Shown here one piece after another: positions 53,437-60,715 of a stretch of DNA of 64,000 nucleotides. This DNA is from an uncultured Spirochaetaceae bacterium (GTDB taxonomy: Bacteria; Spirochaetota; Spirochaetia; SZUA-6; DRHE01). A model generated the notes under the pieces. That model had not been told where the DNA came from, did no database searches, and saw only the letters and a list, made by a program, of their open reading frames with translations. The position numbers and the translations under genes are program-made. The first letter of the stretch is position 1. Each line of letters opens with the position of its first letter. The stretch lies in contig CAZPPB010000005.1 in the NCBI GenBank assembly GCA_964588355.1, positions 218 to 64,217 of the forward strand. The letters run 5' to 3'.

Positions 53437-54750
53437 TTACGCAACCTCCAGATTCATCCGTGCTGATTCTCCCGCCGCTATACCATTGGCCAGGATCTCC
53501 AGTATGTTATATGTACCGCATTTCCGGGCATTGAGAAAGCCGCTCCAGGCGATTTCCGCCAGCCTTCCGCTTTCCAGAAGATCGAATAGCCACTGCCCCG
53601 TATAGGAGGGATCCTCCTGGGGAACCCCGGCCCCGATCTCGAGCAGCCATTTACGGTTGAAGACCTCCTGGGATCCGATCGTCGGGCTGATCATGATCGG
53701 AATCCCCAGGCCGCAGTAAAAGGACAGCTCGCTCGGTTTCGTCCAGAGTATATCGGTTTCATGGAGGATCCGGGAAAAGGACCTGAAGTACTCGTGCTTG
53801 CTGCGACCGAATATCACCCGGAGATTCCGATTTCCCGGCAGCAGCTGCTCCTTGAAGCTGTCGAAGCGGGACCTGACCTGTTCGCGAACACCGGCGACCA
53901 GGTTGAGGCGAACCGATCCCTGCTGCAGGCGATCCCTCAGGCTGGAGGCAATCTGACGGGCGATCTCCCCCTGCGCGCCCGCTCCGCCCACGGCGAAGGT
54001 GATCGTGATGGGGCCCGGGCTGTTGGCGGGGATTCCCGCTGAGCCCAGAAAGTGGGCAGCGTTCTTACCCTGCCGCCGCCGGAAGCGGCCTTCAGGATCC
54101 AGCCGGCACAACCTTCGGCCAAGATCGTATTTGAGACGATCCAGGCTCCTGTCTCCCAGCAGCTCCAGGGGCAGTGGGAAACCGGTCAGGGATATCCTCT
54201 GCGCAGGAACACCGTAGCTGCGAAGACGCAGAACCGTGCGCTCGCAGGGCACAAGATAGTGGATTCCGCTCTTTTGCGGATCTCGGGCGACCCATGCTCT
54301 GGCCACTTCGGCGTCGCAGATAACGCAGTACACCGGATCGTACCCGGCTCTGTCGGCGGCGATCGCCGGTGCCAGGTAGGAAGTGATCAGGGCAAGCGGC
54401 TTGCTGCCGATCCTCTCCAGCATGCCCCCGCACAACCCCCGGTCGATCAGGGTTTCCAGCAGCTTTACCTGACGATCCGGTGTGGAAAGATCCCTGACCG
54501 GATAGTAGGGGGGGATGCTGAGCAGGCGATCCATCAGACCGAACAGAGGTGTGCCGACCAGGGGAATCGATTTGCATCGGGAGATCATTTCGTAAGTTTT
54601 CCGCACCCTGTTCCACAGCCGGCTCTCTTCCGGTGAACAATATTGTTCTCCTCCGACCGGAATAATCCCGCCTTCGGCCACCGAAGCCAGCGGATACGTG
54701 GCCCGCTGATGGCCCAACCCCATATCAACAGTTGCTACCCAGGCTTTCAT
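53437..54750 (-). CDS. Uncharacterised GT-B-fold protein resembling GT28 (MGDG synthase/UgtP-like)
   Basis: DMGLGHQRA, WTKPSEL, PTIGSQEVFNRKWL (compare GxGH and PGQEExN). Family assignment is tentative. Confidence 0.6.
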   Translation of the reverse strand: MKAWVATVDMGLGHQRATYPLASVAEGGIIPVGGEQYCSPEESRLWNRVRKTYEMISRCKSIPLVGTPLFGLMDRLLSIPPYYPVRDLSTPDRQVKLLETLIDRGLCGGMLERIGSKPLALITSYLAPAIAADRAGYDPVYCVICDAEVARAWVARDPQKSGIHYLVPCERTVLRLRSYGVPAQRISLTGFPLPLELLGDRSLDRLKYDLGRRLCRLDPEGRFRRRQGKNAAHFLGSAGIPANSPGPITITFAVGGAGAQGEIARQIASSLRDRLQQGSVRLNLVAGVREQVRSRFDSFKEQLLPGNRNLRVIFGRSKHEYFRSFSRILHETDILWTKPSELSFYCGLGIPIMISPTIGSQEVFNRKWLLEIGAGVPQEDPSYTGQWLFDLLESGRLAEIAWSGFLNARKCGTYNILEILANGIAAGESARMNLEVA

Positions 54751-56004: not shown

Positions 56005-56021
56005 AGCAATTCGCATGCCAT
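56005..56021 (-). promoter_or_regulatory. Sigma54 (-24/-12) promoter pointing into the GT4 operon
   Basis: Minus strand TGGCATGCGAATTGCT = GG-N10-GC, about 25 nt upstream of the GT4 ATG. Confidence 0.78.
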
Positions 56022-56124: not shown

Positions 56125-56216
56125 GGGGCTTCTTCTTGATTGATGAATGAAGGCCGCCTATAATGCAAAGCAAAGGGGCAGGAAGCAGCCGCATCAACAG
56201 CGTAGACAGCGCAAAG

Positions 56217-59180
56217 ATGCCCGAGGAGAACCGTATTACCATCCTACCGTTCTGGCTGAACCTGGATTACTTCTCCGTACTTCGGCTGTCGAGCTTCATC
56301 ATTTCTCTGTGCATTGCCGTTTATCTGTTCAGGCTCAAACAGAGATCGGAATCGACTCTGTGGCTGGCCTGGGTGTTCAGCGGGGGCGCATTGCTCAACC
56401 TGTCGACCTTTTTGGAGTTTTCCGGTCCCTACTACTGGCAGCCCTACACCCTGAAAAACCTGCTCATGCCTTTTCTCCAGGCTCTGGCCGTGGCTGTTGC
56501 CGCCTTCTCCCTGCTGAGTTTTGTCTATCATTTCCCTCATTTCCAGAAACCCGATCGCCGTGAGTACCTCGTCGTCCGCTCTCTGTACATTCTGGCCAAT
56601 CTCCTTATTCTCGGATTGACCTACTACAACTTCATCTCCCTCAAGAGGCTGCGCGGCATCGTAGACTTCGAAAATACCTACTATATCTTCTTTTATACAA
56701 TTCTAGTCGCGGAGTTCACCCTGGCCGTGTTTCTGCTGCTGCGCAAATCCGTACGGTTTTCGACGGGCAAGGCCCACTCCTGGTGGCGCAAACTGATCAA
56801 CCCTCGGGGCAAGGATGCCCTGGCGGCCGGCTCTCTTGCCCTGGTGCTGGTCTTGCCCGCCGTGGTTCTGGTGGTGTACCTGCTGGAGAACCGGGGGTTG
56901 CTGCCGGTATATCTGGCAAACTACCTAATCTGGCTGATATTCCTGCTGTTCTACTGCAGCTTCGTCGTGACCTACCTCAATCACACGGTTGAACGCACGA
57001 CCCTCCAGGTGAAATTGGTGGGGGTAGTGCTCGTATTCGTCGTGGGGGTCCTCGGGCTGATATCCCTTTTTGCCGGCAGGGCGTACCAGCAAGACTACCT
57101 AAATAAGAACCTGGTCACCGACCGGAGGACCGTTCACTTCGCACTCCAGCAATTCGTCAGTTACACGATCTCCGCGGCTCCCTATCACTTCGATCCGGAG
57201 CTGGGATCGGAAATCGAGGTCGGCTTCAACCAGGCCGTAGCCTTGAAACTCCCCTTTGCCTTCCCCTTCTTCACCGACACCTATCGAACGGTGCAGCTGC
57301 TGCACGGCCCCATGATCCTGCTCGGGGAGGATGCCGGCGATAAGAGCTGGGGCGGATACGATCCCACGCCGGCGATCGCGCCGCTTCTAATGAATCTCGA
57401 CCCGAGCCAAGGGGGAGGCATCTACTGCAAGGAGCAGCCGGACCGGCTGACCATAACCTGGAACGAGTTGTCCGAGTACGGGCATGCCAACAAAAACACT
57501 ATCCAACTGGTGCTGCAGCAGGATGGCTCTATCGATTTCTCTTATAGGGAGATAAACATTGAAAGCGGCTACAGCCCGATCCAGATGTACGTGTACACCT
57601 CCGCCACCGTAACGGGGCATCATCCCGGCGCTGCCGGCCAGACGGCACCGGTCGGCCCCAGGCTTATTGGGATCCATCCGGGCAGCCGCCGGGCAGACCT
57701 GCACCGGGTTCGCTTCTCCGGAGGGCTTCCCTGCATCAGCAAGATTCCGGAGGTCCTGTTCGAAGCCTACGACATCGATTTTTATCGCCATCTTCACAGC
57801 CGCATGGCCGTTCTGGTTGTGGTCCTCATTGCCTCCACTATACTGGTGCTGTTTACCGTGCCGATCCTGTTCAGAACGAGCCTGATACGGCCGCTGCAGG
57901 CGCTGTACCGGGGAATGGAACGGGCCGACAGCGGCGACCTGGAGGTGAGCGTCACCCCCCAATTCAACGATGAGATCGGCGCCCTGACCCTGTACTTCAA
58001 CGGGATGCTGCAGTCCATCCAAAAGGAAGAGGCTAATTTCCTGACTCTGGCCGGAAACGCCCAAGACGGGATCCTGATCGTGCTGGAGGACGGCCGGATT
58101 GCCTATGCCAATAAAAGAGCGGTCGAGATCAGCGGTCGCGGCCCTGCCGGGCTCATCGGCACACCGGTCCAAGAGTTGATCCGATTCAAGCAGGCAACGG
58201 CCGCTTCCGAACAATTCTGGAAGAAGGCGAGTGAGCAGCAGGAGACCGAACACCTGGAAGGAAGCGTGCTCATCCCAGGCCGAGAACCTATACCGGTGGA
58301 GATGACCATCTCCAACACCTACTGGCACAGAATGCCTGCGGTCGTGGTGATCCACCGGGATATCAGCGAACGGATACGCAGAGAGGAACAGGATCGGCTG
58401 TACCAGCAGCTGCTCATCCAGATCGATAAGCTCACCACGTTGAGCATTCTGGCCTCCGCAGTGGCCCATGAAATCAACAATCCCAATCAGGCGATTCTCA
58501 ACCTGATCAGGGTCCTGAGTAAGGCCTGGAACGAAGTGCATCCTCACTTCACAAAACAGATCTCTGAGATCGAAGAAATCGAGATCGCCGGGTTCCCCCT
58601 GGACGAGCTGCTCGACAAAGTAGCGGTCTGGCTCACGGATATCGAGTCCAACTCGGAGCGGATCAACGGTATCGTGCAGGATCTGAGATCCTACATCCGG
58701 GGGGAGCCGAAAACGATGAGCAGCGTCGATCTGTCAACCGTGGTTCGCTGCGCCTTGGAACTGATGCACTATCACATCAGGAGGGCAACGGATCATTTCA
58801 TTCTTCAGCTGCAGGACACGCTCCCGTCCATTCGCGGAAATCCCCAGCAGCTCCAGCACGTGGTCATCAACCTGATCTTGAACGCCTGTCAGGCCCACCA
58901 GAATCGGGACACTCCCATCGAAGTCAGTACATCCTATGAGGAGGACCTGGGATCGGTCCGCCTGAAGGTGCAGGACCGGGGCTGCGGCATTCCCGAGGAC
59001 ATCATTGACAAGATCCGGGAACCCTTCTTCACGACCAGGCAGAAAGCCGGCGGCACCGGAATGGGCCTGTATATCGTTGCTTCCATCATCCAGGACCACA
59101 AGGGCACGCTGGAGTTCACATCGGTTGTAGGCAGCGGCACCACGGTCCTGGTTGACTTTCCCGCGGAGGATAGAAAATGA
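56217..59180 (+). CDS. Sensor histidine kinase: about 8 N-terminal TMs, NIDO-like extracytoplasmic domain, TM, HAMP, PAS, HisKA, HATPase
   Basis: AHEINNP, NLILNA, DRGCGIP, EPFFTT, GTGMGL; HAMP (PLQAL...DEIGAL...FNGM). Start uncertain (56217 or 56163). Confidence 0.92.
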   Translation: MPEENRITILPFWLNLDYFSVLRLSSFIISLCIAVYLFRLKQRSESTLWLAWVFSGGALLNLSTFLEFSGPYYWQPYTLKNLLMPFLQALAVAVAAFSLLSFVYHFPHFQKPDRREYLVVRSLYILANLLILGLTYYNFISLKRLRGIVDFENTYYIFFYTILVAEFTLAVFLLLRKSVRFSTGKAHSWWRKLINPRGKDALAAGSLALVLVLPAVVLVVYLLENRGLLPVYLANYLIWLIFLLFYCSFVVTYLNHTVERTTLQVKLVGVVLVFVVGVLGLISLFAGRAYQQDYLNKNLVTDRRTVHFALQQFVSYTISAAPYHFDPELGSEIEVGFNQAVALKLPFAFPFFTDTYRTVQLLHGPMILLGEDAGDKSWGGYDPTPAIAPLLMNLDPSQGGGIYCKEQPDRLTITWNELSEYGHANKNTIQLVLQQDGSIDFSYREINIESGYSPIQMYVYTSATVTGHHPGAAGQTAPVGPRLIGIHPGSRRADLHRVRFSGGLPCISKIPEVLFEAYDIDFYRHLHSRMAVLVVVLIASTILVLFTVPILFRTSLIRPLQALYRGMERADSGDLEVSVTPQFNDEIGALTLYFNGMLQSIQKEEANFLTLAGNAQDGILIVLEDGRIAYANKRAVEISGRGPAGLIGTPVQELIRFKQATAASEQFWKKASEQQETEHLEGSVLIPGREPIPVEMTISNTYWHRMPAVVVIHRDISERIRREEQDRLYQQLLIQIDKLTTLSILASAVAHEINNPNQAILNLIRVLSKAWNEVHPHFTKQISEIEEIEIAGFPLDELLDKVAVWLTDIESNSERINGIVQDLRSYIRGEPKTMSSVDLSTVVRCALELMHYHIRRATDHFILQLQDTLPSIRGNPQQLQHVVINLILNACQAHQNRDTPIEVSTSYEEDLGSVRLKVQDRGCGIPEDIIDKIREPFFTTRQKAGGTGMGLYIVASIIQDHKGTLEFTSVVGSGTTVLVDFPAEDRK

Positions 59181-60583
59181 GAAGCTCTCGTTACCCCGTA
59201 AATCCAATACTGATCGTGGACGATGAGGCATCCGTGGTTCAGGCAACGTCCGCCCTATTGACATCCCACGGCCTCAACAATCTTCTCGGCTGTCAGGACA
59301 GCCGAGAGGTGATGGCCATGCTCCGGGACAACGAGGTGGAGATTGTTCTGCTGGATTTGAACATGCCCCACATCACGGGCCGGAAGCTCCTGGATCAGAT
59401 CAGGGCGGAGTATCCCCACATCCCTGTGATCGTGGTCACTGCGGCCAACGAGGTGCAGACCGCGGTGGAGTGCATGAGAGCCGGAGTGTTCGACTACATG
59501 GTTAAGGCGATCGAGGAATCCCGACTGGTGAGCGGTGTTCGACGGGCCATTGAGAGCAGAGAGCAGGCGCGGAACTTGGCAGAGCTCCGATCCCGATTCA
59601 TGACAGGCGAGCTGAACCATCCGGAAGCATTCTCATCGATTATCACCCGCAGCAGCAAGATGAAATCGATCTTTATCTACATAGAAGCTATAGCCCATAC
59701 AACCGATCCGGTGCTGATCACCGGAGAGACCGGAGTGGGAAAACAGCTGATCGCCCGAGCTGTCCACGATGTCAGTAGACGAACCGGTGAGTTCGTCGAG
59801 GAGACTGCCGGCAGATTTGATTCGGAAAAGCTCGCAGACACTCTATTCGGACACGAAAAAGGGTCATTCACTCACGCAGTCGATTCCCGGGCGGGACTAA
59901 TCCATGAAGCGAAGGGAGGAACTCTTTTCCTCGACGAAATCGGTGACCTAAGCAAAGACGCACAGATCCAACTGCTGAAGTTTTTCGATACGGGAAAGTA
60001 CAGCCCCTTCGGCGCGGATCGGCCTAGACGATCCGATGTCCGAATAGTACTGGCCACCAACCGGAATTTGAAGGAGTTGATGGAAAAACACCTGTTCCGC
60101 AGAGACCTGTACTTCCGGATTTCGATCCACGAGATAACAGTGCCTCCGCTGCGGGAAAGGACGGAGGATCTGCCGCTGCTTCTCGAACATTTTACGAATT
60201 CGGCGGCTAAAGAATATAACAAAAACCATCTCGACGTTCCGGTGGGATTAGCTGGGCAGATATCCTCATACTCTTTTCCGGGAAATATCCGGGAACTTCA
60301 GAAGTGGGTGAAAAACGCCGTGCTTGCGGCCAAACCCTCCGACACTGTTCTTCCCGTCCGGCCTATACTAGAAGCGATGCGCCAGGGTGATCCTACCACT
60401 GGAGACGAGCAGCCGGAGGCCGGTCTGCTGTTCGGGGATATCCTGCCCACTGTGGAACAGGCAACACAGCTGCTAAGATATGAAGCCCTGGCGCGCAGCG
60501 GTGGCAACATCTCCGAAGCCGCCCGCCTTATCGGGATCTCCCACCAGGCTCTGAGCAAGTGGCTCAAAGATCACGGCGGTTGA
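59177..60583 (+). CDS. NtrC-family sigma54 response regulator (receiver, AAA+, HTH)
   Basis: LLDLNMP receiver, GETGVGK, LFGHEKGSFTHA, LFLDEIG, FRRDLYFRI, C-terminal HTH; ATGA overlap with the kinase. Confidence 0.93.
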   Translation: MRSSRYPVNPILIVDDEASVVQATSALLTSHGLNNLLGCQDSREVMAMLRDNEVEIVLLDLNMPHITGRKLLDQIRAEYPHIPVIVVTAANEVQTAVECMRAGVFDYMVKAIEESRLVSGVRRAIESREQARNLAELRSRFMTGELNHPEAFSSIITRSSKMKSIFIYIEAIAHTTDPVLITGETGVGKQLIARAVHDVSRRTGEFVEETAGRFDSEKLADTLFGHEKGSFTHAVDSRAGLIHEAKGGTLFLDEIGDLSKDAQIQLLKFFDTGKYSPFGADRPRRSDVRIVLATNRNLKELMEKHLFRRDLYFRISIHEITVPPLRERTEDLPLLLEHFTNSAAKEYNKNHLDVPVGLAGQISSYSFPGNIRELQKWVKNAVLAAKPSDTVLPVRPILEAMRQGDPTTGDEQPEAGLLFGDILPTVEQATQLLRYEALARSGGNISEAARLIGISHQALSKWLKDHGG

Positions 60584-60698: not shown

Positions 60699-60715
60699 TT
60701 GGCACGATATTTGCG
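60699..60715 (+). promoter_or_regulatory. Sigma54 (-24/-12) promoter downstream of the response regulator
   Basis: TTGGCACGATATTTGCG, a near-perfect match to TGGCAC-N5-TTGC. Confidence 0.82.

Follow-up and report, generated by a model that had tools for sequence, protein, structure and literature searches.

What does a bacterial sensor kinase detect through a periplasmic domain that looks like the NIDO domain of nidogen? Most known extracytoplasmic sensor domains of bacteria have Cache/PAS, four-helix-bundle, or periplasmic-binding-protein folds. The question is raised by a 64,000-nucleotide stretch of DNA from an uncultured Spirochaetaceae bacterium (assembly GCA_964588355.1, contig CAZPPB010000005.1, positions 218 to 64,217, forward strand), which we call the window. 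Its open reading frame at 56163..59180 (+) encodes a sensor histidine kinase of 1005 amino acids (the target), identified by Pfam and NCBIfam scans of the translation. The protein has eight transmembrane helices, then a periplasmic all-beta domain of ~245 amino acids, a ninth helix, HAMP, PAS, and HisKA/HATPase. The original prediction, made from the sequence alone, placed an extracellular NIDO domain at 57075-57800, behind a sensor block of about eight helices, and called the architecture unusual, one that may sense surfaces or polymers. By sequence comparison, we find that the periplasmic domain is a divergent member of the NIDO family. We propose, with a probability of roughly 0.62, that it is the periplasmic input of the kinase, with the eight-helix block acting as a scaffold and a sigma54 regulator as the output.

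The periplasmic domain is a divergent member of the NIDO family

When the isolated segment was compared with Pfam, only NIDO (PF06119) matched, at 20.9 bits (E = 3.8e-4), and no other family appeared at E values up to 10. The full-length protein scored 16.4 bits against the same model, for which the curated gathering cut-off is 25 bits. The match spans residues 429-460, corresponding to profile positions 82-116 only. As a sequence match it is significant but by itself insufficient for membership.

We therefore relied on relatives of the target to supplement this match. A single-protein scan returned close relatives only, all of them from metagenome-assembled genomes of uncultured Spirochaetaceae or Spirochaetales, and a search restricted to the region gave 48 relatives, mostly from spirochaete metagenome bins. 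Two proteins with the same membrane block, P0043 (45.2 bits) and P0046 (34.6 bits), exceed the PF06119 cut-off, and they are related to the target at E values of 2.6e-40 and 6.2e-33, respectively. Ten of the 21 aligned family domains match NIDO and nothing else in Pfam, the best at an E value of 4.9e-8.

Searching 1.84 billion cluster representatives with the family profile gave 13,406 matches at an E-value limit of 1e-3, of which 3,856 had E values of 1e-10 or less. The top matches formed two groups, proteins with the same receptor architecture and giant proteins containing 3 to 30 repeats. All 10 multi-repeat proteins sampled from these top matches exceed the PF06119 cut-off (27-65 bits), and nine of the 10 are non-sensors. 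An independent NIDO hidden Markov model (HMM), made only from 28 repeats of nine non-sensor multi-repeat proteins, scored the target at 83.5 bits (E = 1.4e-24), compared with 8.9 bits for the best of 2000 shuffles. The alignment to this model ran continuously across target residues 333-468.

Together with the Pfam match, this alignment delimits a NIDO-like core at 57159..57566 (+), in which the motifs FxFPFF, IAP, TW, and NTIQLxL..DG..F.Y can be read. They lie in canonical order, as FAFPFF at residues 364-369, AIAP at 404-407, TITW at 430-433, and NTIQLVLQQDGSIDFSY at 445-461. The four strings quoted in the original prediction were all found in the translation of the reading frame: LKLPFAFPFFTDTY at residues 361-374, AIAPLLMNLDPSQGGGIY at 404-421, LTITWNELSEYG at 429-440, and NTIQLVLQQDGSIDFSY. 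Because above-threshold relatives, the reciprocal profile search, and the independent repeat HMM all supplement the direct Pfam match, the predicted NIDO identity held up even though the target itself is sub-threshold. The core carries additions on both sides, namely, a hairpin at residues 322-339 and an extension at 469-535 that contains a conserved GIHPG strand and a low-confidence loop. Family alignments showed that the NIDO-like domain is strongly conserved within the receptor family, and in four of its members (P0043, P0046, P0057, and P0062) the stretch from helix 8 to the HAMP-proximal helix holds two NIDO-like domains in tandem.

The predicted fold is all beta

The whole periplasmic domain, residues 304-547 (57072..57803, +), was delimited from topology and an AlphaFold2 domain model (pLDDT 83, pTM 0.84). 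The model has 14 strands, and its sole helix is the C-terminal one entering the membrane. This all-beta content is consistent with circular dichroism data for the NIDO domain of SNED1 (10.1101/2020.07.27.223107). The same study describes NIDO as mostly beta, without a crystal structure, and without a known interaction partner, and for the NIDO domain of nidogen no structural homologue could be found (PMC4227867).

A Foldseek search of the PDB with the domain model gave no usable match (best E value 0.11, TM score <0.2). A sequence-profile search of the PDB with the domain family likewise returned nothing significant, laminin gamma-1 LN appearing at an E value of 0.47. Neither search turned up a NIDO-like structure. 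Since the known sensor folds are well represented in the PDB, the all-beta model and the absence of a Foldseek match there exclude the Cache, dCache, PAS, four-helix-bundle, and binding-protein folds. The segment thus does not model as a standard Cache/PAS-type sensor, and no such family matched it in Pfam either.

When the domain model was compared with BFVD, Foldseek returned four confident matches (A0A6J5KVM1, A0A6J5P7T5, A0A5B8HUW7, and A0A5B8IEP9; probability 1.0, TM scores 0.44-0.49). All are uncharacterised proteins, two of them encoded by uncultured tailed phages and the other two by ChoanoV1, a giant virus of choanoflagellates. From the shared predicted fold, they may contain viral NIDO-like domains.

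The domain lies between membrane helices, ahead of an intact kinase core

The full-length AlphaFold2 model (mean pLDDT 84.8) places the first eight helices at residues 36-56, 63-87, 97-123, 129-164, 170-198, 217-243, 249-274, and 281-311. These helices form the membrane block (residues 36-311; 56268..57095, +). The same eight, and one more after the periplasmic segment, were found by Kyte-Doolittle hydropathy and in a family-averaged profile of 31 relatives. The ninth helix (57804..57869, +) spans the membrane at about residues 548-569 and runs unbroken into the first HAMP helix, both being part of one modeled helix at 536-589.

The basic loops at residues 56-64, 119-134, and 198-219 are predicted by the positive-inside rule to be cytoplasmic. 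Because these loops and HAMP are cytoplasmic, residues 304-547 are predicted to be periplasmic and the N terminus to be outside. The segment originally singled out, 57075-57800, corresponds to residues 305-546 and falls between helix 8 (~281-311) and the pre-HAMP helix (~548-569). Hydropathy, the family profile, the positive-inside rule, the position of HAMP, and the model all predict an extracytoplasmic location for it, not a cytoplasmic one. With Pfam, they also bear out the full order of eight helices, NIDO-like domain, ninth helix, HAMP, PAS, and kinase.

Downstream of the membrane, Pfam identified HAMP at residues 570-620 (57870..58022, +; PF00672, 41.4 bits), a cytoplasmic PAS domain at 632-738 (58056..58376, +; PAS_9, PAS, and PAS_4), and the HATPase_c catalytic domain at 892-1002 (58836..59168, +; PF02518, 85.2 bits). 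Between the last two lies the DHp/HisKA region (58446..58703, +), where the Pfam HisKA match (762-847) is sub-threshold at 18.1 bits and the model has helices at 735-800 and 813-846. The predicted phospho-accepting residue, His769 (58467-58469, +), sits in the H-box AHEINNPNQ and is nearly invariant in the family alignment. NLILNACQA, DRGCGI, and GGTGMGL, along with the modeled DHp helices, are further class I kinase features. Judging from these motifs, the kinase core is intact, with the H, N, G1, and G2 boxes all present. The closest NCBIfam models were AtoS and ZraS, which matched partially (198 bits versus an equivalog cut-off of 646 bits).

The membrane block is kept while outputs and periplasmic domains vary

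How common is this arrangement? We fetched 208 proteins, 203 of which match the domain profile, and the membrane block directly precedes the domain in 105 of the 203. The claim that the architecture is unusual therefore stands only in part: no example was found in the literature searched, but the arrangement is not rare.

We took a census of output domains in 43 receptors that have both the block and the NIDO-like domain. HAMP was present in 42 of the 43 and HATPase_c in 30, followed by REC (16), SpoIIE (6), adenylate/guanylate cyclase (6), GAF (5), and GGDEF (1). In P0047 (L024:1801-4548), the unit made up of the block, NIDO-like domain, membrane helix, and HAMP leads straight into a sigma54-interaction AAA+ domain and HTH_8. 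From this domain order, P0047 would be a one-component, membrane-anchored enhancer-binding protein without a kinase step.

Even very distant relatives have a homologous block. Its motifs, FAYxFP..RE.R, LRK..S, P.G..A.A.R, and YLNH..EPTT..VKLVG, are all on predicted cytoplasmic loops. No Pfam family accounted for it when 16 diverse blocks were scanned; there were scattered single matches, such as MASE3 in 1 of the 16 at an E value of 0.0028. In a single 151-genome sample of the phylum, the block was found in 31 genomes, at 65 places and in up to 7 copies per genome, and the NIDO-like domain was found in 4. In spirochaetes, the block is mostly paired with other, unrelated periplasmic domains. 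Separately, we noted that in one family (for example, L021 and L022; G161:C1) the block is fused to HAMP-SpoIIE-TPR proteins of ~1060-1090 amino acids, the periplasmic domains of which have no assigned family.

The same genome encodes a paralogous two-component system on another contig (C1:77793-81808; L020). The paralogous kinase (C1:77793-80384) has HAMP, PAS, and a kinase core and is 25% identical to the target in the block and 35% identical in the cytoplasmic part. Its regulator (C1:80384-81808), also of the sigma54 type and 47% identical to that of the target, is coupled to the kinase gene on its upstream side. The periplasmic segment of the paralogous kinase is ~125 amino acids long, is unrelated to the NIDO-like domain, and matches no family. 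This comparison of sequences suggests that the block is a constant transducer or scaffold and that the periplasmic domain is an exchangeable input.

The kinase gene and a coupled regulator gene are flanked by candidate sigma54 sites

The kinase gene is adjoined by a response regulator gene (59177..60583, +) whose product has REC, sigma54 AAA+, and HTH_8 domains in Pfam. Kinase stop and regulator start overlap by 4 nucleotides, as in translational coupling. We compared the loci of five relatives spanning three families. The kinase-regulator pairing was kept in all five, and the genes flanking the pair were kept only within the genus. The sigma54-contact loop of the regulator (59820-59900, +) reads GSFTHA in place of the usual GAFTGA, with the F and T retained. 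Because of this loop, contact with sigma54 is plausible, but we put it no more strongly than that.

The kinase-regulator pair lies between the two best sigma54 matches in the window, both of which point outward and are candidate output promoters. The first, TGGCACGATATTTGC at 60700-60714 (+), lies just downstream of the regulator gene and is the only perfect TGGCAC-N5-TTGC match (a -24/-12 site) in the 64 kb. The second, TGGCATGCGAATTGC at 56006-56020 (-), is a -24/-12-like site with one mismatch that faces a divergent GT4 glycosyltransferase operon. A genome of the same genus (L008) has sites at the same two positions, and there the GT4-facing one is perfect. In another relative (L012), a perfect site directly follows the regulator gene, and in a relative belonging to a different family, a site with one mismatch precedes a divergent MGDG-synthase-type glycosyltransferase gene. 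As read from these sites, the system may control a local regulon touching envelope glycolipids.

If translation of GT4 began at 56021 (-), where its longest reading frame opens, the sigma54-like site would fall within the first codons. The true GT4 start is probably an internal Met (MQIVTGQF...) at ~55979 (-), judging from the sequence.

Glycosyltransferase genes adjoin the kinase in more than one locus. In a different family, an MGDG-synthase/GT28-type glycosyltransferase gene (L011:5291-6823, -) is divergent from the orthologous kinase gene. The divergent operon of the window includes a gene for a DUF6938 glycosyltransferase-like protein (53437-54750, -) that is weakly similar to the L011 MGDG synthase. 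This similarity, in the GT-B C-terminal part (E = 5e-4 over 67 residues), is a lead only. No conserved ligand-related gene was found in the neighborhoods of the five relatives compared.

A model for signaling and its alternatives

In the model that we favor, a periplasmic or envelope-derived ligand would bind the NIDO-like domain and displace the ninth helix, which is continuous with HAMP. HAMP, PAS, and DHp would then set the autophosphorylation of His769, and the phosphoryl group would move to the adjacent REC-AAA+-HTH regulator. Once phosphorylated, the regulator would activate nearby sigma54 promoters, one candidate for which faces the glycosyltransferase operon. Specificity would reside in the exchangeable periplasmic domain, with the eight-helix block serving as a constant transducer or scaffold. 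We assign specificity to the NIDO-like domain mainly because the two paralogs keep the block and exchange the periplasmic domain. As for the ligand, the analogy with giant multi-repeat surface proteins, which carry the same domain, makes a polymer or glycan more plausible than a small metabolite.

Several observations weigh against this model. The target scores below the curated PF06119 cut-off in both the full-length and the isolated-segment scans, and the N-G motif that usually follows the first NIDO motif is lost, the target reading LHGPMILLGE instead. The polymer or glycan idea is purely an analogy, because even in animals NIDO has neither a solved structure nor a known ligand (PMC4227867; 10.1101/2020.07.27.223107). 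With respect to the regulon, neighboring genes vary between the relatives' loci, and the window contains no more matches to the sigma54 consensus at 2 mismatches or fewer than chance would give; because loose matches occur at chance frequency, the sites are leads and not proof. Finally, because its strongest motifs are on the cytoplasmic side, the block may be a signal carrier in its own right.

This last point belongs to the best-surviving alternative, in which the eight-helix block is the real sensor, either of membrane or lipid state or of a membrane-soluble or cytoplasmic ligand, and the NIDO-like domain is an accessory for dimerization, envelope tethering, or localization. The cytoplasmic motifs could dock HAMP or a partner. 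The conservation of the block across very distant relatives would also fit, as would its much wider spread in the phylum (31 of 151 genomes, versus 4 for the NIDO-like domain) and the divergent glycolipid-type glycosyltransferase genes that adjoin the kinase in two separate lineages. A block that did the sensing would, however, leave unexplained why paralogs exchange the periplasmic domain and keep the block, the pattern expected of a specificity element, and why the NIDO-like domain is strongly conserved in the family and duplicated in tandem in P0043 and P0046. We consider this alternative unlikely, although it deserves serious weight.

Distinctly less probable is the idea that the NIDO-like domain binds no free ligand and instead docks a periplasmic or outer membrane partner, such as a co-sensor or lipoprotein, that delivers the signal. 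Beta-sandwich-type extracellular domains often make protein contacts, NIDO is found in matrix proteins that assemble with other proteins, and a CsgG/PEGA lipoprotein-like gene lies near one relative. Yet no conserved partner gene adjoins the kinase across the five loci examined, and no interaction partner of NIDO has been reported (10.1101/2020.07.27.223107). A chance motif match in a Cache/PAS-type or other known periplasmic sensor would account for the sub-threshold Pfam score, but we give it almost no credence in view of the all-beta model, the lack of any PDB match at E <0.1 despite the many Cache/PAS structures there, the lack of any other Pfam family at E values up to 10, and the 83.5 bits from the independent repeat HMM.

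The model with the NIDO-like domain as input can be extended beyond the target. The block, NIDO-like domain, and HAMP could together define an undescribed and widespread class of bacterial transmembrane receptors in which NIDO is a true ligand-binding sensor, a broader claim that we hold tentatively, at slightly less than even odds. If it is true, a bacterial kinase would provide the first practical means of learning what NIDO domains recognize. A small, soluble bacterial NIDO domain coupled to a kinase read-out would make both structure and ligand easy to reach. With a large receptor family of this type, the signaling catalogue would gain two new parts, an input domain and a membrane module. 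The two paralogous systems of this genome differ by a natural domain swap, a ready-made specificity experiment.

Comparison with known systems

We found no description of a bacterial NIDO sensor or of the eight-helix block in the literature searched. The combination of NIDO with a kinase is implicit in Pfam, because some relatives are already labeled as having NIDO beside HAMP and kinase domains. The sensor kinase itself is of a known kind, and it is the input module that is unusual and, in that literature, undescribed.

The target domain shares the motif order FPFfG, IAP..D, TW, NTFQ..L..dG..F.Y with the NIDO domains (PF06119/SM00539) of nidogen-1 and -2, alpha-tectorin, mucin-4, SNED1, Drosophila Mesh, and bacterial multi-repeat surface proteins. 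Like them, it is extracellular (as predicted) and mostly beta, and the sequence relationship is significant. It differs from them in that the N-G turn is replaced by LHGPM..LGE....WGGY, in its added N-terminal hairpin and C-terminal extension of ~80 residues, and in being flanked by membrane helices, as a receptor input, where the others belong to secreted matrix or adhesin proteins.

The cytoplasmic half resembles AtoS/ZraS/NtrB-type kinases that work with NtrC-family activators, in having a HAMP-PAS-HisKA (HE.NNP)-HATPase core and a coupled REC-AAA+-HTH_8 regulator. In contrast, the N-terminal half, comprising the eight-helix block and the NIDO-like domain, has no counterpart in those kinases, and the regulator loop reads GSFTHA, not the GAFTGA of NtrC-family activators.

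As a polytopic N-terminal block found on diverse outputs (kinase, SpoIIE, cyclase, and GGDEF), the membrane block is comparable to 7TMR-DISM, MASE1-9, and 5TMR-LYT, but none of those Pfam models consistently matches it. In 7TMR-DISM receptors, the extracellular domain comes before the membrane block. In the receptors described here, the extracytoplasmic domain follows the block, inserted ahead of the ninth helix and HAMP.

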